Shown one piece after another: positions 12,139 through 45,840 of a stretch of DNA of 64,000 nt. The DNA comes from a virus. The DNA lies in IMG/VR virus record IMGVR_UViG_3300021962_000061, positions 1 through 64,000 of that record. One strand, given 5' to 3'. The position numbers and the translations under genes are program-made. How positions within the stretch are numbered: position 1 is the first letter of the stretch; every line of letters begins with the position of its first letter. Below the pieces are notes generated by a model that was not told the DNA's origin, did not search any database, and worked only from the letters and a program-made list of their open reading frames with translations.

Positions 12139-12146
12139 TATTTATA
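12139..12146 (-). promoter_or_regulatory. late promoter TATAAATA upstream of gp13
   Basis: Exact consensus. Confidence 0.8.
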
Positions 12147-13032
12147 GATCAATTACATCCATGCATTCAAGTAGTCCACTTGTCACCCTTTCTGTCTCAT
12201 TTCCATTGGCAATTATTCTATTAGCGGTGGTTTCGGGCAGCCATTTACCAACATTTATAGTAATATCTTTATATTTGTGATACGGATATCCAAATATTTC
12301 TTCAACTTTCTGTTTATTTGGAGCAGCAATTACCTTATTCCAGAAGTTTAGAATATATCCATTTTGGGCCCTGAGGTTATGGGCAATAGTTTGTCTTGCT
12401 GATATTGCGGCACCAATAAGAACGTCACTTTTATGATTTAAGTTTCTATCAAGGTACGCTAGTTGTTTTTTCTTAATTGCATCGCTTAGAAACTGGCCAT
12501 CATTACTGTAGTTTAAATTAGTAATTTTTGTCATGTCAACTACAAAAAAGTTGGTGTCTACAGACATATCACGTGGAGGTAAACCAATCATGCCATACAT
12601 TGCTAAATGTCTATCGTACTGATATACTCTTGATAAACATAGGCCTATTTTATTACAGTTTAGGTTAGACTTTGCAAATTGCGCATAGTCTTTAACAGCA
12701 ATTGCTCCAGCCATTATGCATGAAGCAACACCAGAATATCCTGTCAAGCTAATGGCATTAAGGGTTGATAAAATTGTATTTCTAATATCAAAATCTTCTA
12801 AAACAAATACTTTGTAATTTAAATTGTTTGCTTTTACAAATTCTGATACAACCTTATCATAATCTTTAAATGCAGCATACTCTTTGTTGGTTTTGTTTTC
12901 TTCATACATCGTGTTATATTTGGACACTTGGCTACCTGGAATGATGATTGTTACATCTTCAATTCCAAGATCTCCAAGAGACTTAATTGTCAAAAAACAA
13001 CCATGATGTTGTGCAATAACAAAAGTTTTCAT
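12142..13032 (-). CDS. putative divergent GT-A fold glycosyltransferase-like protein
   Basis: N-terminal Rossmann-like pattern (FLTIKSL...VTIIIP). DTNFFVVDMTKI...NDGQFL resembles the GT8 N-x-G-V-x-x-x-D-L...DQxxL segment. No clear DxD, so tentative. Confidence 0.4.
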   Translation of the reverse strand: MKTFVIAQHHGCFLTIKSLGDLGIEDVTIIIPGSQVSKYNTMYEENKTNKEYAAFKDYDKVVSEFVKANNLNYKVFVLEDFDIRNTILSTLNAISLTGYSGVASCIMAGAIAVKDYAQFAKSNLNCNKIGLCLSRVYQYDRHLAMYGMIGLPPRDMSVDTNFFVVDMTKITNLNYSNDGQFLSDAIKKKQLAYLDRNLNHKSDVLIGAAISARQTIAHNLRAQNGYILNFWNKVIAAPNKQKVEEIFGYPYHKYKDITINVGKWLPETTANRIIANGNETERVTSGLLECMDVIDL

Positions 13033-14012
13033 GTTATTACACCTTCTTTCTGAAATACTTCTTTGTTAGCTTCATCACCAACTTCACCTGGTTTATACTG
13101 CACTTTAACATGCTTATATTTTTTTGTGTTTTCAAAAAATCTGGCAATACATTCTGCCTTATTATTATGGTGAACAGTGATTAGACCAGACTCAGGGTGT
13201 GACATTAAAGCAGCAAATTTATTATATAATGTGTCCTTGACACCACATTTATCTAAAGATGTGTAGATTGCTTCAAATGTTTTACCAACACTAACTTTTT
13301 TATTATCAACTAATCCAATACCTTTACCTAGTAGTACAGCTGCACAACCTGTTTCTGATGATAACGTAAAGTATACTTTTTTAGATTTCTTAAAGATTGG
13401 ATACATTGAAGCATCGTTCCTAACAATCCTCTCTCTGTATTTTTGTTCTAGAATTGTTTGCCACACTTTGGCCGTGATAGGGTGTATCTTTACCCACGCT
13501 CCATTATTGTATAATTCATCAACTTTTTCCCAATCAACAGCATCCTTGTTAATTAAATTAGTCCCTGGTAGTAATACTAATTCATTAACATTAGCGTATT
13601 GATTATCAAGGTCATCATCTAGAATATACTTGTCTGTTAAATTATCTTTAAGTGCTTGAGCAATTCTAAATCCATCTTCCGTTGGACCCTTTCTTATTTG
13701 TTCAACCATAATGTCTACTGTAATGCGTGTATTGCATGCAGCAATGTATAGCACTTGAGTGAGTAGGTCGGTGTACTTATAACCAGTTATAGTATCTTTA
13801 GGACTACCGTAACTGATATCGTACTCAATTTTTAACCCGTTGGGATTTTTAGGAATTAGATCAGCTATTTCTGATAATCTATCATTAGCTGGGGAACGCA
13901 GCATATTTCCTGATTTCATGAAGTGGGTAACAGTGTCGTTTACCCATTCGTTAGAGGAAAGATTAAAGAATTTTTTCTTCTTTGTTTTTGGATCAACAAC
14001 TTCATCCACCAT
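13029..14012 (-). CDS. putative GT-B glycosyltransferase (KpsS/KpsC, sialyl- or Kdo-transferase-like)
   Basis: WVKIHP and VYFTLSSETGCAAVLLGKGI match the VKxHP...T.xS.xGxEAxxxGKP signature of CMP-sugar transferases. Confidence 0.6.
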   Translation of the reverse strand: MVDEVVDPKTKKKKFFNLSSNEWVNDTVTHFMKSGNMLRSPANDRLSEIADLIPKNPNGLKIEYDISYGSPKDTITGYKYTDLLTQVLYIAACNTRITVDIMVEQIRKGPTEDGFRIAQALKDNLTDKYILDDDLDNQYANVNELVLLPGTNLINKDAVDWEKVDELYNNGAWVKIHPITAKVWQTILEQKYRERIVRNDASMYPIFKKSKKVYFTLSSETGCAAVLLGKGIGLVDNKKVSVGKTFEAIYTSLDKCGVKDTLYNKFAALMSHPESGLITVHHNNKAECIARFFENTKKYKHVKVQYKPGEVGDEANKEVFQKEGVIT

Positions 14013-14016
14013 AATA

Positions 14017-14166
14017 TTAACCCTTTTTCACATTTTCTAATTCATGCACTTTCTTTTTTAAGGTCTTGATCTCTTGATGCAAGTCCATTATCTTTTGCAA
14101 CATAATCTCAACAAAAGACTCTAACTTTCTATCAATCAATTCATTACTGACACGCTCTTCACTCAT
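14017..14166 (-). CDS. 49-aa coiled-coil protein (not in ORF track)
   Basis: MSEERVSNELIDRKLESFVEIMLQKIMDLHQEIKTLKKKVHELENVKKG; GAGGTG SD; follows a late promoter. Confidence 0.75.
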   Translation of the reverse strand: MSEERVSNELIDRKLESFVEIMLQKIMDLHQEIKTLKKKVHELENVKKG

Positions 14167-14199: not shown

Positions 14200-14207
14200 T
14201 ATTTATA
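14200..14207 (-). promoter_or_regulatory. late promoter TATAAATA driving the small ORF and two GT-like genes
   Basis: Exact consensus. Confidence 0.8.
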
Positions 14208-14211
14208 TTGA

Positions 14212-16200
14212 TTAATTAAACGTAGTTACGATAGTGGTATCGAATGTTGTTGTTCTAGAAGTATTGTACGATGTGTTGCGGTTAGTGTCATAAGTTGTGT
14301 TGTATGCAGAGCTAGTTGATTTGCTTGTGTTTATCACTGTGTCTCTAGTTGTATCATATGTCGTTGTTGTGTCAAATGTGCTAACGGTATCAAACACTGT
14401 TTGAATTACTGTATCAAATGTTGATGTTGTAGATTTTGATGTAGACTTGCTCGTGTCAATTGTTGTGTCATAAGCTGTTGTTGTATTGAATACAGTTGTT
14501 GTATTATAGTTAGTGTCAATAGTAGTATCAAATGTTGATGTTGTAGATTTTGATGTAGACTTGGTTGTTGCAATTGCAGTATCAAATGTTGTAGTTGTAT
14601 TAAATACTGTTGTTGTGTCGAATACAGTTGATCTTGTAGTTTCAAATGTGGTTGTTGTGTTAAATGTTGTTACAATTGTTGTATCAAATGTTGATGTTGT
14701 AGATTTTGATGTAGACTTGGTTGTTGCATATGCAGTTTCATAAGCTGTTGTTGTATTAAATACTGTTGTTGTGTCAAATGCAGTTGATCTTGTAGTTTCA
14801 AATGTGGTTGTTGTGGACTTACTTGTACCAATAACGGTATCAAAGGTTGTTGATTTTGTTGTAGCAAATGCTGTGTTAAAAAAGAAGGAAGTATCTTTAA
14901 CAGTATTGTTCAATACTGTTGTTCCATAAGTTGTCGTTGTATTAAATGATTCCGCAGTTTGTTTAGATGTTGCAGTTGCTCTACTTGTAGCTTTAGTTGT
15001 CACGCCCGCAGCACCGGTGTTAAAGTAGAATGTTGTATTGAAGTAGAATGTAGTACCAAAATAGAATGTTGTACCACCACCGGCTGATGTGTTGTAATAG
15101 AAAGACGTATCTCTAACAGTGTTATAAGCAACATATGGACTAAAGAAGAATACTGTAACGTAGTATGTTAAACCATCATATCGTGTGCCAAAATAGAATG
15201 TAGTGCCACCACCCGCTGATGTTCCACCTCCTGCAGCAGTGCCAGCGACCCGTGTTGTTCCAAAATAGAATGTTGTGCCATATGTGGTGTTATAAATTGT
15301 AGTTGTGTTAAAAGTTGTAACTGTTTGTTTAGATGTTGCAGTTGCTTTAGATGTATTAAAGAAGAATGTTGTCTGGAATGTTGTTAACAAAGCTGTGGTT
15401 GTAGCCCTTGTTGTATCATACGTTGTATTTCTTGATGTGGCATACCCAGTTTCATAAGATGTTGTTGTAGCACCTGATGTGTTGTAAGTGGTATTTCTAC
15501 TAGTAGCTGTAGCTTTTGATGTGGCGGTAACCCCTGATGTTGCAATTACTGTATCATATGTTGTATTATAAGTTGTGGTTGTAGATTTAGAAGTTGCATA
15601 TGTAGTGTTTCTACTTGTGGCTGTAGCTAAAGTAGTGTTGTAAGTTGTATTTCTACTTGTAGCAGTTGCATTAGATGTGCTTGTGGTTCTAGACGTAGCG
15701 TATGCTGTATCATACGTTGTGTCATATGTTGTAGTTGTAGATACAGTTGTCAAATACGATGTGAGAACAACGGATGCTGTTGTTCTTGATGTGCTTGTCG
15801 TCTTTGTTGTTGTGTAAGAGGTGCCATACGTTGTGTCATATGTTGTAGTTGTAGATACAGTTGTGGCATAGGCTGTGTTTCTACTTGTTGAGGTAGTTCT
15901 AGTTGTGGCTGTTGTTTTAGTTGTATTATATGTTGTAGCGTAGCTTGTTTCAAAGGTAGTTGTTGTTGCAATTGTTGTGCCACGTGACGTATTGAATGTT
16001 GTAACGATAGTTGTATCAAATGTAGTTGTACGTGATGTTTCGTATGTGGTATCTTTTTCAGCAACATAGACTAATCGTAGAGTACCATTATCATTAACGT
16101 AAACTCTATTAATCTTACGCAAAATACCGCCATCATTAACTTTAATGATCTTAGCGTCTCGTAGTGTTCCGTTATCGTTGACAAATATTTTGCGCGGCAT
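14212..16200 (-). CDS. Thr-rich self-complementary (predicted giant beta-hairpin) virion appendage protein
   Basis: 662 aa; N-terminal triple VNDxG motif followed by ~615 aa of 2/4/6-residue T-terminated units mirrored about FFFSPY. Confidence 0.8.
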   Translation of the reverse strand: MPRKIFVNDNGTLRDAKIIKVNDGGILRKINRVYVNDNGTLRLVYVAEKDTTYETSRTTTFDTTIVTTFNTSRGTTIATTTTFETSYATTYNTTKTTATTRTTSTSRNTAYATTVSTTTTYDTTYGTSYTTTKTTSTSRTTASVVLTSYLTTVSTTTTYDTTYDTAYATSRTTSTSNATATSRNTTYNTTLATATSRNTTYATSKSTTTTYNTTYDTVIATSGVTATSKATATSRNTTYNTSGATTTSYETGYATSRNTTYDTTRATTTALLTTFQTTFFFNTSKATATSKQTVTTFNTTTIYNTTYGTTFYFGTTRVAGTAAGGGTSAGGGTTFYFGTRYDGLTYYVTVFFFSPYVAYNTVRDTSFYYNTSAGGGTTFYFGTTFYFNTTFYFNTGAAGVTTKATSRATATSKQTAESFNTTTTYGTTVLNNTVKDTSFFFNTAFATTKSTTFDTVIGTSKSTTTTFETTRSTAFDTTTVFNTTTAYETAYATTKSTSKSTTSTFDTTIVTTFNTTTTFETTRSTVFDTTTVFNTTTTFDTAIATTKSTSKSTTSTFDTTIDTNYNTTTVFNTTTAYDTTIDTSKSTSKSTTSTFDTVIQTVFDTVSTFDTTTTYDTTRDTVINTSKSTSSAYNTTYDTNRNTSYNTSRTTTFDTTIVTTFN
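14411..14719. repeat. three identical 39-bp intragenic repeats (14411, 14525, 14681)
   Basis: GTATCAAATGTTGATGTTGTAGATTTTGATGTAGACTTG; spacings 114 and 156 nt. Confidence 0.9.
15555..15864. repeat. intragenic repeats in the opposite arm (identical 40-mers at 15711 and 15825, degenerate copy at 15555)
   Basis: CATACGTTGTGTCATATGTTGTAGTTGTAGATACAGTTGT; spacings 156 and 114 nt. Confidence 0.85.
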
Positions 16201-16224: not shown

Positions 16225-16923
16225 TTATGGTATATAGACATACCAAACATGACCGTTGGAGCTGGCTCCAACATCACTGGGTTCCACGCTAGTTATTGTA
16301 GCAGGGGTTCGCCAGTATGCTCCACCTGTTGAATTTGAATACAATATTTGATCTTGTGCACCAGTAGCTCCGTTGGCAAGTAACTTATCCGGTACATTTA
16401 TAGCTGAGCTATTGGCAATTACAGTACCATTAATTAATATGCTAGCAGCTGATATAACAGTATTGACAGTTGAGTTACCGATAAACAATGCTGATGTGTT
16501 TAATGATAGATTAGCGCCAACAGCTACTGTAGTTGTATTAACTGTTACAATACCGATATCAATTTCAGTTGAATTGGCTGTCCAAAAGACTGTTGAATTA
16601 CCAACATAAACATTACCGGAAATATTAGCAAAGCCAGTAATCGTAGTGTTACCCAACGCGGCTGTATTTGAAACTGTCAAAGCACCATTAACTGTAACAT
16701 CGCCACGAAGAGTAGCTGCTCCACCAACATTGGCAGTTGAAGAAACATTAATGAACCCAGTTACGTCCACATTACCTGACGTAATAGTACCATCTATTTC
16801 CAACGATGATTGAGTGAGTACGGCGTTAACAGTTGAGTTGCCAATCACCAATGCTGATGTGTTTGCAACAATATTGGCGCCAACTTCTAAACCGTTTTTT
16901 ACTCTAAAATTTTGATTAGCCAT
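16225..16923 (-). CDS. fibre/structural protein with GNSTVN repeats
   Basis: MANQNFRVKNGL N-terminus, beta-repeat body, C-terminal P...NGHVWY motif. Confidence 0.7.
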   Translation of the reverse strand: MANQNFRVKNGLEVGANIVANTSALVIGNSTVNAVLTQSSLEIDGTITSGNVDVTGFINVSSTANVGGAATLRGDVTVNGALTVSNTAALGNTTITGFANISGNVYVGNSTVFWTANSTEIDIGIVTVNTTTVAVGANLSLNTSALFIGNSTVNTVISAASILINGTVIANSSAINVPDKLLANGATGAQDQILYSNSTGGAYWRTPATITSVEPSDVGASSNGHVWYVYIP

Positions 16924-27846: not shown

Positions 27847-28944
27847 TTATTTGTCTTTTAGTCCTAACTCTAGGGTTTGCACTTTATCATTAAGATGTTT
27901 GATCGCTTCAATAAGTAGTGGAACTAATTTACTGTAATCCACTGCTTTATAGCCATCTGATCTTAAGTAAACAGCTTGTGGTGCTACCTTTTCAACATCT
28001 TGAGCAACCAAACCTATATCATTATCTGGTTTTGGGCCCACATTTGTTAAATCAGCAATTGCCTCTTTATCCCAGTCAAATTCAACGCCGTTTAATTTTA
28101 ATATCTTTTCAAGACTATTATCAATTAACTTGATATTTTTCTTTAATCTTTCGTCAGATGTATAATAAGCGGTTACATCACCTGTCGCGTAAATTGCACC
28201 ATTCACGTGCAAAGGAGCTTCTGGGTTAGTCACACCACCAACACCAATTCTTGCTGCTGTGTTTGAAATAAACAATGATGCTGTTGTACCACCAAAATTT
28301 ACATTAGCATTGAATCTTACTTGACCGCTACTATTGGCGTTTACGGTGCCTAATGTTAGTGTATCAATTTGTTGTTCGGTTAGATGGGTTAATCGTGTTC
28401 TTACCCACTTATTTGATGATGTGTCATATACAATTGTATCATAAGCAGAATTTGTAGTGTTAGCATACCCAACATTTGAAGTCAAAAGAAACTCGGCCGG
28501 GTCAAGATCAGTACCCTTAACATTTAAATTTGCAAACGCCATATACCCAGTACTGTTTGCTTTTAGCCAACCAGTAGTGGATGAGTAAGTGGATGATCTA
28601 TCAGCAAATCTAAGTTTTGTTGTTGTATCAATTGTTACGTTACCAAGAGCGCTCAAATGACCAATGGTATACAAATTGTATGAACCATCAACAACAACAT
28701 TCGTACTAATTGTAGCATTAGCACCAGCTGGACCTGTTAATGTGTTATTAATAGTTATTGTATTTGCAATAAAAGTACCAAATAATCTAGCTGTGTAACT
28801 GACTGTTGAGTTGCCAGTATTACTTCCTGTTGTATTAGCAGTAATAACAGCATTACTAATAGTCTGTGCTATTTGGTTGGTAATGGAAATCCAACCTGCA
28901 AATGTATCCGTATTTGCATTTATTTCGGAAATTACTACTGACAT
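27847..28944 (-). CDS. tail fibre with C-terminal intramolecular chaperone (peptidase S74)
   Basis: N-terminal DTFAGWISITN; YYTSDERLKKNI, GLVAQDVEKVAP, VDYSKLVPLLIEAIK. Confidence 0.88.
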   Translation of the reverse strand: MSVVISEINANTDTFAGWISITNQIAQTISNAVITANTTGSNTGNSTVSYTARLFGTFIANTITINNTLTGPAGANATISTNVVVDGSYNLYTIGHLSALGNVTIDTTTKLRFADRSSTYSSTTGWLKANSTGYMAFANLNVKGTDLDPAEFLLTSNVGYANTTNSAYDTIVYDTSSNKWVRTRLTHLTEQQIDTLTLGTVNANSSGQVRFNANVNFGGTTASLFISNTAARIGVGGVTNPEAPLHVNGAIYATGDVTAYYTSDERLKKNIKLIDNSLEKILKLNGVEFDWDKEAIADLTNVGPKPDNDIGLVAQDVEKVAPQAVYLRSDGYKAVDYSKLVPLLIEAIKHLNDKVQTLELGLKDK

Positions 28945-38782: not shown

Positions 38783-41700
38783 TTAATTATTTATATAAAC
38801 GGTATCATAATTTGTTTGGATAGCCGTTTCATATGCAGTTGTAGTTGTTTTGTCAGTTACTATGCTTGTAGCTGTTGTAACAGTTGTATCAAGATCAGTA
38901 TCTTTATATACTGTATCAAATGTAGTAATAACTTCTGTTGTTCTTGTGGTATCTCTTACGTATTCAAACGTCTGTGTATTAGTTAGAATATTTGTTGCTC
39001 GACTGGTTAATTTACTACCTGTTAAAAATACAGTTGTAAGTTCAACGTCTGTTAAAGTATCAAACTCGGTAATTCTATCCTTATAATCAATAACAGTAGT
39101 CGTAGATTTTGATGTTAACTGTTGTGTTTGGCCAGAAGCTGTATTATACGTTGTAGATGTTAAAAACGAGGTTGATGTCTGTGTCGATACAGCAGAAAGA
39201 GTGGATTTTGATGTAGCAGTTGACTTTGTAGTTAGCAAAGCGGAAACAGTAGTTGAAGATGTTTCAAATGCTGTTGATGTGATTGATGTAATTGTACTTG
39301 TTGTCTTTGATGTAGCTGTTTGGAATTGTGTAATCAGTATAGAATCAGTCACTTTGGCTGTGTCAGTTAAAAATGCCGTTGTTGTAGTTGTTGAAGTATA
39401 TGTGTCTCTTGTGGTATTAAATGTTGTTGATCCAAAAGGCGTTGTTAAAAATACTGTATCATAATCTGTTGAAGTTGTCTTACCACCCTCATAGCGAGTG
39501 AATGCAGTAGTGGTTGATTTTGATGTGGATGTTGTTACATCTGTGTCAAGTGCTGTGTCTTTATAAACCGTATCAAATGTAGTTGTAGTAGCTGCAGAAG
39601 ATTGGGTAATAGCAAACGTTGTATCAAATGTAGTGGACGTTGATAATGTTGTGTCATACCCAGTTGTTGTGTTGAATGTTGTTAATGTGTTTTTAACAGT
39701 GGATGTGGTAACATCTGTATCCAGCGAAGTATCTTTATAGGTTGTTGAACCTGTGGTGCTTGTTAGCTTGGATGTTGCTGTACTCTTTGTTGTACCAAAT
39801 GTAGTCAGTGTATTTCTAGAAGTGGACAATGTTGTATTTGTATATGTACTTCTTGCAGTTTCAAATGCAGTAGAATATGCTGAAAGATACTGAGTGGTTG
39901 TATTAAATGTAGTATCATAAACAGTATTGTATACTGTTAATGTTCCTACTGTGGTGGCTGTATCCTTTGATGTTTGGCCAGGGTTTGTATTAATAACTGT
40001 ATTGAATGATGTGGTTGTAGTACTAGATGTAAAGAACCCACTTGAAGTGACATAAGTTGTGTTTGTTGTCTTAGATGTACTAATTGTGGTATCAACAAAT
40101 GTTCCAGCCCCAGAGTTTGTTTGATATGAAGTGTTATACGAAGTTGTTGTTCCAATTGTAGTTAAATACACTGTACCAATAACAGTCTCAAAAACTGTGG
40201 TTGTATCATAATCACCTGACATTGGATATAGTGTATCAGTTATAATGTCAGTAGATCTTGTTGTTGCCTTTGATGTTACGCTTGACGTTATTGTAATTGT
40301 GCCCTTAGATGTAAGACCCAGGGATGTAGCAGTTGTTTTGGATGTAGAAGTTGTAACATCTGTTTCAAGAGCAGTATCTCTAAACAGTGTTAAGAAAGTT
40401 GTAGCTGTACTTGAGGTTGTTATATAAGATGTTGTTGTTTGATTGCCTGTATCATAACCAGTATCAAATGCAGTTGATGTATTTACAGATGTCGAAAACA
40501 CAGTATCAAATGTTGATGTAGTTGATTTGGTTGTTGCATAATTTGTAGCGTACGCAGTTGCAGTTGTCTTAGCTGTATCAATATTAGTATCGTAGGTTGT
40601 AGAAGATGTAATTACTGTACTTGATAATGTGTCAAATGCTGTTGTTGTATTTTTAGAGGTAATAACATCTGTTTCAATACTTGTTATATAATCAGTATCA
40701 TATACTGTAGATGTTGACTTAGATGTTATGGATGATGTTGAAGTATTACGGGCTGTATTGTATGCAGTTGCAAATTCTGTAGAAGAGTCATACACAGTTG
40801 TAATTTCTGTACCTCTTCTTGTATCGTATGTGGTATTAATAACTGTACTTGTTGAGTATTCAGTAACGCGAGACACCGTAGCAAAGTTACTTACAAATAC
40901 TGTAGATCTACTGGTTGTTGTTGGCTTGTCAGTTGCTTGTGAAGTATTGAAGTATGTTATCACCTCAGTACCCTTAGACAAAGCTGTTGCTCTAGATGTT
41001 GATATGGACGTGTCAAATGTTGTTGATGTATCAAATTGTGACACATATCCAGTTGTAGTGCTCTTTGATGTACTGTACTGGGATGCATACTCAGTATCTA
41101 CTACTGTGTTGTAAAGACTTGAAGTCGTTCTGGCAGTGGCCTTCACAAGGTCTGTGTTGCGACTATCACTCAATGTTGTTTCATAAGAAGTTGCAATTGA
41201 TGTTGATGTGTCAATAGTTGTATCTGCAACACTGTCATATGCTGTAGTTGTTGATACGTTTGTTGATAAAGATGTGTTGAACGCAGATGCTGTAGTTTTT
41301 GAGGTAGCAACTAACGTATTATAAGTTTCGTATGTTGTTACAAAAACGCTACTGTAAACTGTGTCGTATACTGAAGTAGTTGCAATTAATGTTGGGTTTG
41401 TAGTAGCAACAACTGTGTCACGCAATGTGTTTCTGTTTTGGAACACAAACTCTGTGTCAGTAACTTTGGATGTTAAAACATTTGTATCTACAGAAGTTAT
41501 AATACCAGCAACCGTTTCATATTGCGTTTGATACGTTGAACTGTAAACAGTTTGTGTAGCTAGGATAACATATGTTGTTGTAGTGTTAACATCTGTATCC
41601 CGTGAGGTTGAGCGGTTTGTTGTACTAGCAAATGTAGTAGCCGTGTTTCTACTTTCATCCACACCGGTATCATAAGTTGTTGTAGTATCAAAAATTGATG

Positions 41701-43882
41701 TTGTAGATTTACTTGTAGATTTAGTTGTTGCATAACCTGTGTCGTAGGTAGTGTTAAACACTGTTGCAGTAGAAACATTTGTTTGTCTAGTTGTAAATCT
41801 ACCTGTGTTTGTAATCTTTTGTGTGATAAATGTTGTGTCAATAGTTGTATCAAATACAGATGTTGTATTTTTAGATGTAGCAAAAATAGTATCAAAGACT
41901 GTTGTAACAACACTAGATGTATCATATCCTGTTTGATAAGTTGTATCAAAGGAAGATGTGGTTGATTTGGAAGTTGTCTTAGTAGTGTTAATTGTTGTAT
42001 CAGTTAGAATTGCTGTATCAAACGCACTTACAACAGTTGTGTCGGTGCTATACGCTGTATTAAATGTGCTTAAAATAGTTGTGTCAAATGTACTTACAGT
42101 ATCAAATGTGGTAGTTGTATCAAACGTGGATGTAGTATCATAAGCAGTTGTAGTTGCCACAATAGTAGATGTAGCTTTACTTGTAGCAACACTAGTTGTT
42201 TTGGATGTTGCAGTTGCTCTAGATGTTACAATTACCGTGTCATAAGTTGTATTGTAGGTTGTAGTTGTTGTGTACGTTGTGTTAAACAGTACTGTTGTCT
42301 GCGTTGATCTACCTGTTGCTACTGCTGTACTATAAGATGTTGTGTATGTAGTTGTTGTTGATACGGACGTAGCTCTGGATGTTGCAAAAGCAGTTGAAGT
42401 AGCTTTATTTGTAGCTTTTGAAGTTTCAAAAGTTGTTGTTCTTGCTGTATTAAAAAAGAACGATGTGTCTCTAATTGTATTGGGTACCACAGCTGTAGTA
42501 CCAAATGTTGTGTTAAAAAAGAACGATGTATCTCTAACAGTGTTATTTAATACTGTTGTTTGTGTAGATTTTGATGTTGCTGTTTGTTTATTTGCTTCAA
42601 ATACTGTTACGGTATATGTAATAAGCTCCTCTTGGAGTTCGGGGTCAAAATAAGATGATACGGTTTCTCTAGAAGTAATAAAGGCTGTAACCGTATTGAA
42701 GGTTGATGTTGTATTGAAGAAGAATGTTGTCTGGAATGTAGTTAATAAAGCTGTATTTGTTGCTTTAGATGTATTAAAAAAGAATGTTGTCTGGAATGTA
42801 GTAAATAAAGCTGAGGTTGTTAAAAATGTAGTTGTTTTAGATGTATTATATACTGTATTAAACACCGTTGATGTTGATGAGGTTGTATCATATACAGTTG
42901 AATAGCTTGAAGTTGTAGCTTTAGAAGTAGCTGCACTGGTGTCAAATATGCTCAAGTATGATGTTGTTGTTGCCTTTAAACTGCTTGTTGCTTTGGTTGT
43001 ATCAGTGGATTTAGATGTCGATTTACTAGTAGCAAAACTTGTGTCAAAAGATGTTGTGGTATTGAAAGTAGTTGTATACTCAGAATCATAAGACGTGGTT
43101 GTAGCTACAGCTGTATCTGTGGATTTAGATGTACTTGTAAGCTTAGATGTTTGTGTTGATTTTGAAGTGCTTGTAGATACAGTTGTGCTATAAGACGTTT
43201 CTCTTGATGTACTTTTTGTTGTATCCGTTGAATAAGATGTTTCTCTAGTTGTTTCATAGGCAGTAGTTGTTTGATATGATGTCTCGTAAGTTGTTGTATA
43301 AGACGTTGTCGTAGCTTGATTTGTACCTAGAGTTGTTGTTACAAGTGTATTAAATGTAGTAGTTGTGTTCTTAGATGTGGACTGGGATGTATCAAGCGTA
43401 GTAGATGTTATCTTTGTTGTAATATAGGCTGTCGATCGTGATGTATTATAAGCTGTTACGGTATCAACAAGGGTTTCATATGCCGTAATGAATATGCTGG
43501 AAGTTGTCTTGGATGTACTCTTTGTCGTTAATACAAAAGTATCAAACGTCGTATTAAATACAGTTGTTGTTGACTTAGATGTAGAAGTAGCTTTGGATGT
43601 GTCAATATTAGTTACATACGCTGTAGTCGTTGTGGATGATCTGTCTGTATTGTACAGCGTAATGTATGTTGTTTGAGTTATATAAGCTGTTGCAATTTCT
43701 GTTTGTCTTTGCTGTTGTATTTCAAAAGAAGTTTCAGTAGCAGTTCTCGGAATTGCTTTAGTAATTTCAATCTTGGCACCGGAAGCGGGAGCTGTAACAA
43801 ATACAACATTGTTACCAGTAATAGTATAATTAGTACCTAGTACTTGCGTTATGCCATTGACTTTAACAACTATGCTGCTCAT
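38783..43882 (-). CDS. giant Thr-rich self-complementary hairpin protein, baseplate-associated
   Basis: 1699 aa; N-terminal VKVNG..Q..GTNY...F.TAP domain; same repeat grammar and shared motifs as 14212-16200. Confidence 0.8.
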   Translation of the reverse strand: MSSIVVKVNGITQVLGTNYTITGNNVVFVTAPASGAKIEITKAIPRTATETSFEIQQQRQTEIATAYITQTTYITLYNTDRSSTTTTAYVTNIDTSKATSTSKSTTTVFNTTFDTFVLTTKSTSKTTSSIFITAYETLVDTVTAYNTSRSTAYITTKITSTTLDTSQSTSKNTTTTFNTLVTTTLGTNQATTTSYTTTYETSYQTTTAYETTRETSYSTDTTKSTSRETSYSTTVSTSTSKSTQTSKLTSTSKSTDTAVATTTSYDSEYTTTFNTTTSFDTSFATSKSTSKSTDTTKATSSLKATTTSYLSIFDTSAATSKATTSSYSTVYDTTSSTSTVFNTVYNTSKTTTFLTTSALFTTFQTTFFFNTSKATNTALLTTFQTTFFFNTTSTFNTVTAFITSRETVSSYFDPELQEELITYTVTVFEANKQTATSKSTQTTVLNNTVRDTSFFFNTTFGTTAVVPNTIRDTSFFFNTARTTTFETSKATNKATSTAFATSRATSVSTTTTYTTSYSTAVATGRSTQTTVLFNTTYTTTTTYNTTYDTVIVTSRATATSKTTSVATSKATSTIVATTTAYDTTSTFDTTTTFDTVSTFDTTILSTFNTAYSTDTTVVSAFDTAILTDTTINTTKTTSKSTTSSFDTTYQTGYDTSSVVTTVFDTIFATSKNTTSVFDTTIDTTFITQKITNTGRFTTRQTNVSTATVFNTTYDTGYATTKSTSKSTTSIFDTTTTYDTGVDESRNTATTFASTTNRSTSRDTDVNTTTTYVILATQTVYSSTYQTQYETVAGIITSVDTNVLTSKVTDTEFVFQNRNTLRDTVVATTNPTLIATTSVYDTVYSSVFVTTYETYNTLVATSKTTASAFNTSLSTNVSTTTAYDSVADTTIDTSTSIATSYETTLSDSRNTDLVKATARTTSSLYNTVVDTEYASQYSTSKSTTTGYVSQFDTSTTFDTSISTSRATALSKGTEVITYFNTSQATDKPTTTSRSTVFVSNFATVSRVTEYSTSTVINTTYDTRRGTEITTVYDSSTEFATAYNTARNTSTSSITSKSTSTVYDTDYITSIETDVITSKNTTTAFDTLSSTVITSSTTYDTNIDTAKTTATAYATNYATTKSTTSTFDTVFSTSVNTSTAFDTGYDTGNQTTTSYITTSSTATTFLTLFRDTALETDVTTSTSKTTATSLGLTSKGTITITSSVTSKATTRSTDIITDTLYPMSGDYDTTTVFETVIGTVYLTTIGTTTSYNTSYQTNSGAGTFVDTTISTSKTTNTTYVTSSGFFTSSTTTTSFNTVINTNPGQTSKDTATTVGTLTVYNTVYDTTFNTTTQYLSAYSTAFETARSTYTNTTLSTSRNTLTTFGTTKSTATSKLTSTTGSTTYKDTSLDTDVTTSTVKNTLTTFNTTTGYDTTLSTSTTFDTTFAITQSSAATTTTFDTVYKDTALDTDVTTSTSKSTTTAFTRYEGGKTTSTDYDTVFLTTPFGSTTFNTTRDTYTSTTTTTAFLTDTAKVTDSILITQFQTATSKTTSTITSITSTAFETSSTTVSALLTTKSTATSKSTLSAVSTQTSTSFLTSTTYNTASGQTQQLTSKSTTTVIDYKDRITEFDTLTDVELTTVFLTGSKLTSRATNILTNTQTFEYVRDTTRTTEVITTFDTVYKDTDLDTTVTTATSIVTDKTTTTAYETAIQTNYDTVYINN
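38788..38795 (-). promoter_or_regulatory. late promoter TATAAATA upstream of gp8
   Basis: Exact consensus at the end of the preceding gene. Confidence 0.75.
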
Positions 43883-45840
43883 GCCCCACCAGGAATAGAG
43901 TATGCGTTTGTACTACCATCACCAACAAAACCCCTACCAGAATAGCCTGTTGTTGCTGATGTTACCTCACTAGAAATCAATACACGACCAAACTTTTCAA
44001 CACCTGCAGGGTGCCACAACTTTCTTAGTAAGTCACTATACTTGTCAAATACAATAGAGGATCTTACTTCGTATGAAAAATCTTGGTAGTAAAAACTATC
44101 GTGTATGTACTTATCTGAGTTTAAAAATCCTCTAGTGGATTTAAATCTACCTTCACCTTCACCTTGCTTGAGCACCTCAAGAGTACCTGTACCTTCTAGT
44201 TGGGTGTTTGCCAGTGACACAAGAGTAACAAATTCATTTGGCTCATATCCAAACCCCGAATCAGTAATTTTAACAGCACCAACAGCGTCTGTACCAAATC
44301 CTGTTAATGCTGTAATTACAGCATTGTTGCCAAGATAACCATTACCACTTTCTCCTCTGCCAGCTTCGTGTTGAACATCAAGCAACTTCAAAGTTGATAT
44401 AATAGTATCTACTGCTTTCACTTGAAGATTAGTGGTATAGCCTGAGCCAGGGTTGACAGTTTTTAGACGTCCAATGGTGCCCACTAAATAGTTTTGAAAT
44501 CCTAAAGCATCCTTCAGAAGTGTATCAAAACCAGCTTCAACATTGGATGATAATCCATATCCATTTGCTGTAGGATAAGACAATTGGCCAATTATCATAT
44601 TAGTGACATTGTTAGCTGTACCAATATAAGTTGTTGTTTGCCCGAGAGCTGAAATTTTTAGTGGAGATGTAAATAGGTTGTGCGTGTCTACTAATGTTTG
44701 GATCGCCAAGTTTGCTTCTTCCCCACCGCCGGCTATTTCAGCATCAAGTATAGCCGCCACACCAACACTTGGACTACTTGATGTATTAATAACACTGATC
44801 ACTACAGTGTTTGCGTTTAAGAAACCATTACCACCATTTGTTAGTGATATTGTTACAATACCACCCACAGTATTTGTACTGACGTTTGCTATTGCATTAA
44901 TAGAGCCGTTTGAAAGAATAACAATATCACTGTTGTCATAGCCAGAACCACCCGATGTTATGATTACATTTGTTACAGGACCTGTAATTTGAAATTCTGT
45001 GTTATCAATAGTATAGCCGCTACCACCATCAAGTAATCTAAAACTTACTGTGCCGTCTCTTTCTTCTAATTGTGTAACAACTGCTTTACACCCCTTGCCC
45101 TTACCTCTAACTTCTAGCTCATCTCCTAGATTAAAACCAAACCCTGTTTGGATTCCTGTTATTGATGTGGCTGAACCAATGATTTGAGGGGAGTTGATAG
45201 CACTAACAGCGGGTTCCGTGCCTTCAGGTAAGCGGGCTTGGTCAATTAAAACGGTTTCATCGTTTCGGAAGTTTCCTTCAACATCTGTCAAATAAAATAT
45301 GTTAATGTTTTTATTATTAATATATTTTGTTTGAAATCTTTCTACATAAGCTCTTGCACCAGATACACGCCCAACAATAAACTCACCAACAAATAATGAA
45401 TTGAAAGGCTTATAGGATACTTCAAGGTAGATGTTCTGCCCCCATTCACCATCAGAAAGTCTGAAGACATCGTCACCTGGTTTGTATACACTTATACTAT
45501 CACCAAATAACAATTGAAATAATAGTTTTAAACCACGCTCGGTTCCCTTTGAACCATATACTTCTTTAATATGTTTCTGGAGTAGCTGCTTATCGCCTGA
45601 AATATCTTCAGGAATTGGAAACATGTATTTTTTCTTAAACTCATTAATAAAGACATCAATTGTTTTATCAATATCTCTATATTCCAACAATCTTCTTGAA
45701 TCATAAAGAATTTGATCTTGAGATTCTAACCACTCGAAGTATGCTTTAACAAAAGCAATAAACAACGGACCTTCATCTCTGTAGATAGAAGGAAATTGAT
45801 CGGCAATAAATGGAGAAATGAATCTTTCTATTTGCTTCAT
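43879..45840 (-). CDS. gp7: baseplate wedge protein (gp7-like)
   Basis: FIAFVKAYFEWLE, DIDKT, YGSKGTERG..LLFQLLFG, HDSFYYQDFSYEVRS, WHPAG. Confidence 0.82.
   Translation of the reverse strand: MKQIERFISPFIADQFPSIYRDEGPLFIAFVKAYFEWLESQDQILYDSRRLLEYRDIDKTIDVFINEFKKKYMFPIPEDISGDKQLLQKHIKEVYGSKGTERGLKLLFQLLFGDSISVYKPGDDVFRLSDGEWGQNIYLEVSYKPFNSLFVGEFIVGRVSGARAYVERFQTKYINNKNINIFYLTDVEGNFRNDETVLIDQARLPEGTEPAVSAINSPQIIGSATSITGIQTGFGFNLGDELEVRGKGKGCKAVVTQLEERDGTVSFRLLDGGSGYTIDNTEFQITGPVTNVIITSGGSGYDNSDIVILSNGSINAIANVSTNTVGGIVTISLTNGGNGFLNANTVVISVINTSSSPSVGVAAILDAEIAGGGEEANLAIQTLVDTHNLFTSPLKISALGQTTTYIGTANNVTNMIIGQLSYPTANGYGLSSNVEAGFDTLLKDALGFQNYLVGTIGRLKTVNPGSGYTTNLQVKAVDTIISTLKLLDVQHEAGRGESGNGYLGNNAVITALTGFGTDAVGAVKITDSGFGYEPNEFVTLVSLANTQLEGTGTLEVLKQGEGEGRFKSTRGFLNSDKYIHDSFYYQDFSYEVRSSIVFDKYSDLLRKLWHPAGVEKFGRVLISSEVTSATTGYSGRGFVGDGSTNAYSIPGGA

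Follow-up and report, generated by a model that had tools for sequence, protein, structure and literature searches.

Can the two halves of one protein chain be written so that each residue of the first half has its pairing partner in the second? This question is raised by a gene in the first 64,000 nucleotides (nt) of the IMG/VR virus record IMGVR_UViG_3300021962_000061, a stretch that was analysed as a whole and is referred to here as the window. The gene encodes a threonine-rich protein of 662 amino acids (aa), which we call the hairpin protein and for which an original prediction, made from the letters alone, had proposed one giant self-pairing β-hairpin. Below, we describe a residue code that relates the two arms of this protein across a central proline and recurs in equal-armed relatives. 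The two arms probably pair antiparallel within one chain, making a giant β-hairpin fibre. To a fuller reading we assign a probability of about one half: that a protein code resembling base pairing zips a single chain into a monomeric, coreless β-ribbon 100–200 nm long, which phages would hang on monomeric anchors such as gp7, tune in length by mirrored duplications, and fit with a mirror-symmetric tip that can be swapped.

Threonine accounts for 244 of the 662 residues (37%) of the hairpin protein, which contains no histidine, cysteine or tryptophan. Its only prolines are Pro2 and Pro355, the latter being the sole internal one. After a head of 47 residues, a two-residue parity runs unbroken through the 615 residues from 48 to 662. 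On one parity track of this body, threonine (154 of the 307 positions) alternates with bulky residues such as F, Y, K, R, I and V, while the other track carries small polar residues. Read as dipeptides, the body resolves into 155 units, comprising 103 tetramers, 29 dimers, 22 hexamers and one central 12-mer, and this bears out the parse into mostly threonine-terminated units of two, four or six residues that had been proposed to follow the head.

The two sides of the body mirror each other in a single ungapped register of 307 pairs, in which residue i stands opposite residue 710 − i (1-based numbering; i + j = 708 when counted from zero) and Pro355 forms the centre. In this register, 72 of 80 sites (0.90) are bulky on both arms, compared to 0.58 for the next best centre, and six of the eight sites that do not coincide are threonine versus serine. 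The first residue of the body (48) is opposite the last residue of the protein (662). The arms had been put at 307 and 308 residues; their near-equality stands, but the second arm also has 307 (residues 48–354 and 356–662).

The pairs follow a code. Seventy of the 72 bulky:bulky pairs place an aromatic residue opposite a non-aromatic one; the remaining two, which lie at the tip, are aromatic:aromatic, and no pair joins two non-aromatic residues. The non-aromatic partner in the mixed pairs is Lys or Arg in 38 cases, aliphatic in 18, small (Gly, Ala or Ser) in 12 and polar in two. When partners were permuted, 36 ± 4.3 mixed pairs were expected, and 70 was reached in none of 10,000 permutations, so that the proposed placing of aromatic units opposite K/R, aliphatic or small ones proved correct. 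The aromatic residue belongs to the N-arm in 34 cases and to the C-arm in 37, and Thr:Thr pairs across the arms number 73. There is also a second-order rule: the aromatic residue is followed by Asp or Glu in 19 of the 38 pairs in which it faces Lys or Arg, versus 6 of 42 with other partners (nominal p = 7e-4). The same rule recurs in six of the seven proteins tested, the exception being L005, a relative described below.

Pairing had originally been described by units, about 80 pairs of which were said to match in length from the centre outwards. By residue register this description holds (the 72 of 80 sites above), but by unit index it does not: only 45 of 75 unit pairs have equal lengths, or 52 of 80 if serine is also allowed to close units. 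These counts are weakly above those after shuffling (36.7 ± 3.2 and 40.9 ± 3.4, with 50 and 5 of 5000 shuffles, respectively, matching the observed value). The first 12 pairs agree, after which the index slips, and the count is low because at two places a dimer plus a tetramer faces a hexamer. The residue register was used instead.

To control the register, all units were shuffled 1000 times, keeping both the composition and the units themselves. At the observed centre, the fraction of coinciding bulky sites in the shuffled sequences had a mean of 0.34 and a maximum of 0.535, so that shuffled units did not pair as well as the natural order (0.90). The best value over all centres had a mean of 0.58 and a maximum of 0.83, and shuffling within the arms with the centre retained gave a mean of 0.435 and a maximum of 0.67. 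In 58 shifted registers, aromatic:K/R pairs numbered 8.2 on average and 18 at most, versus 38 in the observed register. The antiparallel score of the protein was 286.5, compared to 102.5 for the best parallel register (a shift of 4). Among the 39 stop-to-stop frames (≥200 aa) of the window, a scan for antiparallel registers scored the hairpin gene at 286.5, another Thr-rich gene at 253 and the other 37 at no more than 27. The mirror observation is confirmed as real and lies far beyond chance.

Several candidate origins of such a pattern were rejected. TxT ice-binding β-solenoids carry threonine arrays on one face of parallel coils of constant period, and the hairpin protein resembles them in its threonine arrays on one face but differs by an antiparallel signal that spans the whole chain. 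A parallel β-solenoid or TxT-type repeat was ruled out by this preference for the antiparallel over the parallel register and by the mixed unit lengths of two, four and six. A disordered, mucin-like threonine linker, for which only composition would matter, was ruled out by the loss of signal in shuffles that keep units and composition and by the unbroken parity of the body. An origin in a DNA palindrome, or in sense–antisense coding, was also rejected: the hairpin gene holds only one inverted repeat (17 nt, 82%), guanine–cytosine skew keeps one sign across the whole gene, and a threonine codon cannot be the reverse complement of another threonine codon.

Scans of viral and metagenome contigs yielded 20 loci with the same type of head, ten of which had complete open reading frames (ORFs): the window (662 aa), L004 (1184), L001 (1299), L002 (1287), L009 (1319), L017 (1264), L019 (1286), L021 (1155), L022 (1152) and L023 (1092). 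Loci with truncated ORFs (L003, L008, L010, L012–L016, L018 and L020) were left out of the count of equal arms, and L007, which is the same contig as L004, was counted once. The window protein is the shortest of the complete set (662–1319 aa). In all ten, the best antiparallel register opens at residue 49. In eight it runs to the final residue of the protein or the one before, and in L001 and L002 it stops 56 aa short of the C-terminus. Arm length ranges from 307 to 635 residues, with the arms staying equal. Neighbouring genes are 53–89% identical across the loci, and the length of the hairpin gene varies two-fold.

The register of aromatic:non-aromatic and Thr:Thr pairs is present in the nine other complete orthologs, and also in a paralog encoded in the window, in L005, and in the gp7 protein of a cultured phage, all of which are described below. 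Pooled over the ten orthologs, there are 1426 aromatic-containing pairs, of which 32 are aromatic:aromatic, and K/R:K/R pairs number zero. Proline occurs in seven of the ten apex windows, and the apex motifs of the relatives are rich in Gly and Pro.

A comparison of L001 and L002 showed how the two arms change together. These proteins are 94–100% identical at residues 1–450 and 851–1299, and 32–76% identical between residues 451 and 850, a divergent stretch that is mirror-symmetric about the apex. Insertions and deletions (indels) sum to six additional residues in the N-arm of L001 and six in its C-arm. This symmetric divergence, with its matched indels, indicates that the distal third of the hairpin was swapped as a mirror-symmetric cassette, which is what a functional tip module and a need to keep the arms matched would lead one to expect. 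In the window protein, both arms show a 38-residue period, and DNA repeats are spaced by 156, 114 and 114 nt in the N-arm and by 114 and 156 nt in the C-arm. Given this mirrored spacing and the period common to both arms, growth by matched duplications is visible in the gene itself.

These data also bear on the idea that the protein has no stable fold and is a disordered, perhaps glycosylated, Thr-rich spacer, the mirror being a by-product of repeat turnover or composition. The threonine content, a structure model of very low confidence in the ESM Atlas, and the two conserved genes of no known family that follow the hairpin gene all lend themselves to such a spacer. However, it fails to explain the parity of the body, the scarcity of aromatic:aromatic pairs and the lack of K/R:K/R pairs in ten orthologs, the equality of the arms over a two-fold range in length, and the symmetric swap of the tip, and shuffles that keep composition and units lose the signal. 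We consider it extremely improbable.

The paralog, a protein of 1699 aa with 34% threonine, has at least two hairpins of its own (Table 1), and perhaps a weaker third (score 54). Its gene starts 4 nt inside the end of a gene for a gp7-like baseplate wedge protein (43879–45840). L005, an ortholog of this paralog, has arms at residues 44–594 and 644–1194. In Stenotrophomonas phage DLP6, and in two further proteins, P0003 and P0018, the hairpin is fused to gp7. The arms in DLP6 gp7 (AMQ65900.1, from KU682439.2) span residues 706–967 and 982–1243, with a score of 165. The C-terminal half of this protein thus has the same Thr-rich mirror design as the window protein, in a T4-like myovirus that is in culture; it differs in that the hairpin is fused to gp7, lacks the three-repeat head, and has shorter arms. 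The protein is named just gp7 in the accessible text of the DLP6 genome paper, where the word “threonine” does not occur (PMC5349666). T4 gp7 is a monomer, present in six copies per tail (PMC3004832, excerpted text).

A self-complementary pattern alone would suit an intermolecular duplex as well as a hairpin, and all the pair statistics fit both. In such a duplex, two extended chains would pair antiparallel, so that the ribbon would be of double length and carry heads at both ends. However, the sole internal proline is at the exact centre and both aromatic:aromatic pairs are at the tip; Gly and Pro abound in the apex motifs of the relatives; a single chain of the paralog contains several distinct centres; and anchors at both ends would be ill suited to a virion appendage or to fusion with gp7. 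The gp7 fusions, the multiple centres of the paralog and the lone central proline together favour the intramolecular hairpin over the duplex, which we consider quite unlikely, and the same observations make a single-chain fibre plausible.

As implied by the sequence code, the chain of the intramolecular hairpin would run outward to a distal tip and then back to its origin. In the window protein, the virion fibre of a T4-like myovirus would thus be made from one chain: 307 residues would go out, turn at Pro355 and zip back in register, leaving both termini at the head end. On one face of the ribbon, made by every second residue, Thr:Thr rungs would alternate with rungs containing a single aromatic residue (Phe or Tyr) opposite Lys/Arg, Ile/Val/Leu or Gly/Ala. 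The other face would carry small polar pairs, with Asp, Asn, Ser or Ala opposite Thr or Ser. The acidic neighbour of those aromatic residues that have a K/R partner suggests a balance of charge across the ribbon, and the forces holding the arms together may include cation–π and aromatic-over-Gly contacts. At ≈0.33 nm per residue, the ribbon would be ≈100 nm long for arms of 307 residues and ≈200 nm for arms of 635. The three-repeat N-terminal head would anchor the fibre to the particle, while the distal tip, rich in aromatic residues and Gly, would be a variable and exchangeable part that likely contacts the host surface.

Whether such a hairpin stands alone as a monomeric two-stranded ribbon we regard as an even question. 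It could instead be the protomer of an oligomer, such as three hairpins forming a six-stranded tube like the T4 gp37 needle, or two ribbons packed face to face, with the aromatic/Thr face buried. The two faces of the ribbon differ markedly in hydrophobicity, and phage fibres are usually trimers: T4 gp12, gp34, gp36, gp37 and wac have three chains per fibre (PMC3004832, excerpted text). The gp37 needle is itself a trimer, in which the chain leaves the D10 domain and re-enters it (PMC6957217, excerpted text). Yet about half of the aromatic residues of the hairpin protein are opposite Lys or Arg (38 of 72 pairs), an arrangement that a buried core would not readily accommodate. Fusions also place the design on gp7, which in T4 occurs as a monomer once per wedge (PMC3004832, excerpted text). 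Moreover, the three head repeats lie within a single chain, and there is no histidine for a metal core. An oligomer of hairpins is possible in our view, but we hold it only tentatively.

The gp37 needle (D10–D11) is the nearest described architecture, being likewise a thin element of a phage fibre whose chain extends to a tip and then returns. D10 comprises residues 811–881 and 1010–1026 of gp37, receptor binding takes place at the distal tip, and a glycine of one strand packs on an aromatic residue of another (G921–F970) (PMC6957217, excerpted text). In contrast to the hairpin protein, which lacks histidine, gp37 is obligately trimeric and contains seven iron ions coordinated by His (PMC6957217, excerpted text). 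Its needle measures ≈150 by 25 Å (PMC3004832, excerpted text), compared to arms of 307–635 residues in the hairpin family. There is no sequence or profile similarity between the hairpin protein and gp37 or solved fibre tips in Pfam, PHROGs or PDB, and the excerpted text on gp37 describes no residue-by-residue pairing code.

Several points weigh against the single-chain hairpin fibre. The ESM Atlas model of the exact hairpin sequence has no confident fold, with a predicted local distance difference test score (pLDDT) of 0.23 and a predicted template-modelling score (pTM) of 0.13. To our knowledge, there is no precedent for an isolated two-stranded ribbon of 307 rungs, and such a ribbon may not be stable as a monomer. 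The p-values are nominal, since repeats and relatives do not count as independent observations. A place in the virion and an adhesive or host-binding role are features that we infer. Among the ten orthologs, L017 (Ga0194113_10023512) has its tip (550–661/674–785) in a register 22 residues off that of the stem, and it differs from the near-identical L019 by 22 residues confined to one arm. This offset is either an unmatched indel, and hence a real bulge, or a collapse of repeats in the assembly; the other nine orthologs have no such unmatched indel. In L004, the tip, of 85 residues, shows no clear register. Finally, covariation along the anti-diagonal, which had been suggested as a check, is thin in its classical form: each pairwise comparison gave 0–2 rungs in which the aromatic residue had changed arm. 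Pairwise alignments of repeats are biased, and this flip test was not used as support.

The original prediction is thus partly supported. Its core, antiparallel self-pairing around VFFFSP/YVAYNT, agrees with the register statistics and their controls, the ten equal-armed orthologs, the mirror-symmetric tip swap and the paralog. The residue code, its conservation, the equality of the arms and the setting in a structural module are shown; the physics, including the β-ribbon fold, its length, its oligomeric state and the nature of the forces, is what we infer from the code.

Database searches gave little that resembled the protein. No family was matched in Pfam at E values up to 0.1, there were no matches in PHROGs, and phmmer against PDB gave none at E values up to 1. 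Searches of 50,697 phage records with the hairpin gene (tblastn and blastn) and with a 52-aa head (tblastn) gave no match, with the low-complexity filter probably masking the body. A search for homologous proteins returned one match among 8000 scored candidates. An exhaustive phmmer search found 45 matches, nearly all of them confined to the head, as the signal of the body is lost to composition correction. A search for related loci with the 1699-aa paralog returned no relative. In the ESM Atlas, features matched unnamed viral clusters at 0.86–0.89, and structure matches had template-modelling (TM) scores of at most 0.30; both were treated as uninformative. A full-text search of the literature, which did not extend to supplementary files, found no description of a mirror-coded hairpin fibre. 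The suggestion that the architecture is undescribed for phage fibres therefore stands, with nothing alike in the literature, Pfam, PHROGs or PDB. The mirror-coded hairpin is matched by no family library and no solved structure, and would be a new fibre design.

Other known systems share single aspects of it. Tryptophan zippers, the central sheet of OspA, SasG rods and the “aromatic rescue of glycine” are cases in which cross-strand pairs stabilise a structure. Like these short hairpins and single-layer sheets, the hairpin protein would draw its stability from cross-strand pairs (here Thr:Thr, aromatic:Lys/Arg and aromatic:Gly) and not from a buried core. However, the known examples have ≈10–20 residues per strand or are repeats of three-stranded domains, whereas the arms here have 307–635 residues and follow a strict grammar of four-residue units. 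In gene position, the hairpin protein resembles T4 fibritin (wac), which has an N-terminal anchor and is likewise encoded by a fibre gene just upstream of the neck genes gp13 and gp14; we take the T4 gene order to be gp12–wac–gp13. In contrast to the hairpin protein, which has no heptad character, fibritin is a trimeric coiled coil with three chains per whisker (PMC3004832, excerpted text). The 37% threonine and strict two-residue parity make a heptad coiled coil with a foldon implausible.

Table 1. Coordinates of the hairpin gene, its segments and associated genes in the window.
Feature	Position	Strand	Residues or length	Remarks
Hairpin protein gene	14212–16200	−	662 aa	ATG start; stop codon 14212–14214; from ORF list, composition and antiparallel score
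Head	16060–16200	−	1–47	Three tandem VNDxGxLR-type repeats; alignment of five orthologs, 65–67% identical to window
N-arm (outgoing strand)	15139–16059	−	48–354	Register i + j = 710 (1-based)
Apex codon	15136–15138	−	Pro355	Symmetry centre inside VFFFSPYVAYNT (15118–15153)
C-arm (returning strand)	14215–15135	−	356–662	Register i + j = 710; end exactly opposite first body residue
Distal tip zone	14998–15273	−	310–401	F-Y-F hexamers opposite Ala/Gly runs; holds both aromatic:aromatic pairs
N-arm sub-tip module	15352–15393	−	270–283	Common with 1699-aa paralog, 92% DNA identity over 62 nt
C-arm mirror partner of sub-tip module	14872–14919	−	428–443	Common with paralog, 87% DNA identity over 67 nt
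Paralog	38783–43882	−	1699 aa	34% Thr; hairpin 1, 63–394/440–771; hairpin 2, 844–1000/1001–1157
Downstream trio	12142–14165	−		49-aa ORF; 327-aa protein (13029–14012); 296-aa protein (12142–13032); lies before gp13

The segments of the hairpin gene are listed in Table 1. The head probably serves as an anchor module. A VNDxGxLR head of three repeats also starts ≈40 short proteins (55–240 aa; among P0004–P0047) whose C-terminal domains are unrelated, and is, on this distribution, a widespread N-terminal module. Two of these short proteins, P0012 and P0025, have leaders that resemble signal peptides. The two sub-tip modules are mirror-related to each other and are common with residues 355–391 and 441–480 of the paralog at 85–92% DNA identity, which suggests exchange between the paralogs or a conserved, predicted binding site.

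The virus is a divergent T4-like myovirus, and the window covers its structural module. The portal protein is 54.7% identical to that of DLP6, the closest named match; for the portals of Pelagibacter, Methylophilales and cyanobacterial phages the identity is ≈52%. In the direction of transcription, the hairpin gene is followed by the 49-aa ORF, the 327-aa and 296-aa genes, and homologs of gp13, gp14 and gp15, and then by the small terminase, large terminase, sheath, tube and portal genes. In all six related loci that extend that far, the genes for the 327-aa and 296-aa proteins lie downstream of the hairpin gene. Neither protein has a family in Pfam, NCBIfam or PDB, and an identity as glycosyltransferases found no support in these libraries. 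The only trace was a faint lead in the ESM Atlas (score 0.78), in which 15% of the members of one cluster carried Capsule_synth. The two proteins could be assembly or modification factors for the fibre. Between the stop codon of the hairpin gene and the 49-aa ORF lies TATAAATA (14200–14207, minus strand), presumably the T4 late-promoter consensus.

Just upstream of the hairpin gene, a 232-aa protein (16225–16923, minus strand) has a sub-threshold, bactofilin-like match (24.9 bits versus a cut-off of 27.9) and is probably a small β-helical fibre protein. A conventional fibre tip is encoded in the same module by a gene for a 365-aa protein (27847–28944, minus strand), which matches many tail-fibre distal-subunit families in PHROGs with a best E value of 3.9e-36. 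In the structural region of Pelagibacter phage HTVC008M (L011), a cultured relative, frames of at least 300 aa between 20000 and 69900 included no mirror-coded protein (maximum score 27.5), so that not all of these T4-like phages have the design.

Should the fold prove to be the one that the code implies, it would represent a new way to build a protein fibre, from one chain in two strands with no core, in which length is set digitally by the number of rungs. It would also explain how a long fibre can be mounted on a single-copy protein. The family would provide a natural data set for cross-strand pair preferences, given the aromatic-containing pairs pooled from ten orthologs, and a template for long, programmable β-ribbons. 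The presence of the design on gp7 of DLP6, a cultured phage, makes the idea directly testable. For the uncultured T4-like phages, it would mean that large, unannotated and variable structural genes encode organs of host contact with an exchangeable tip.

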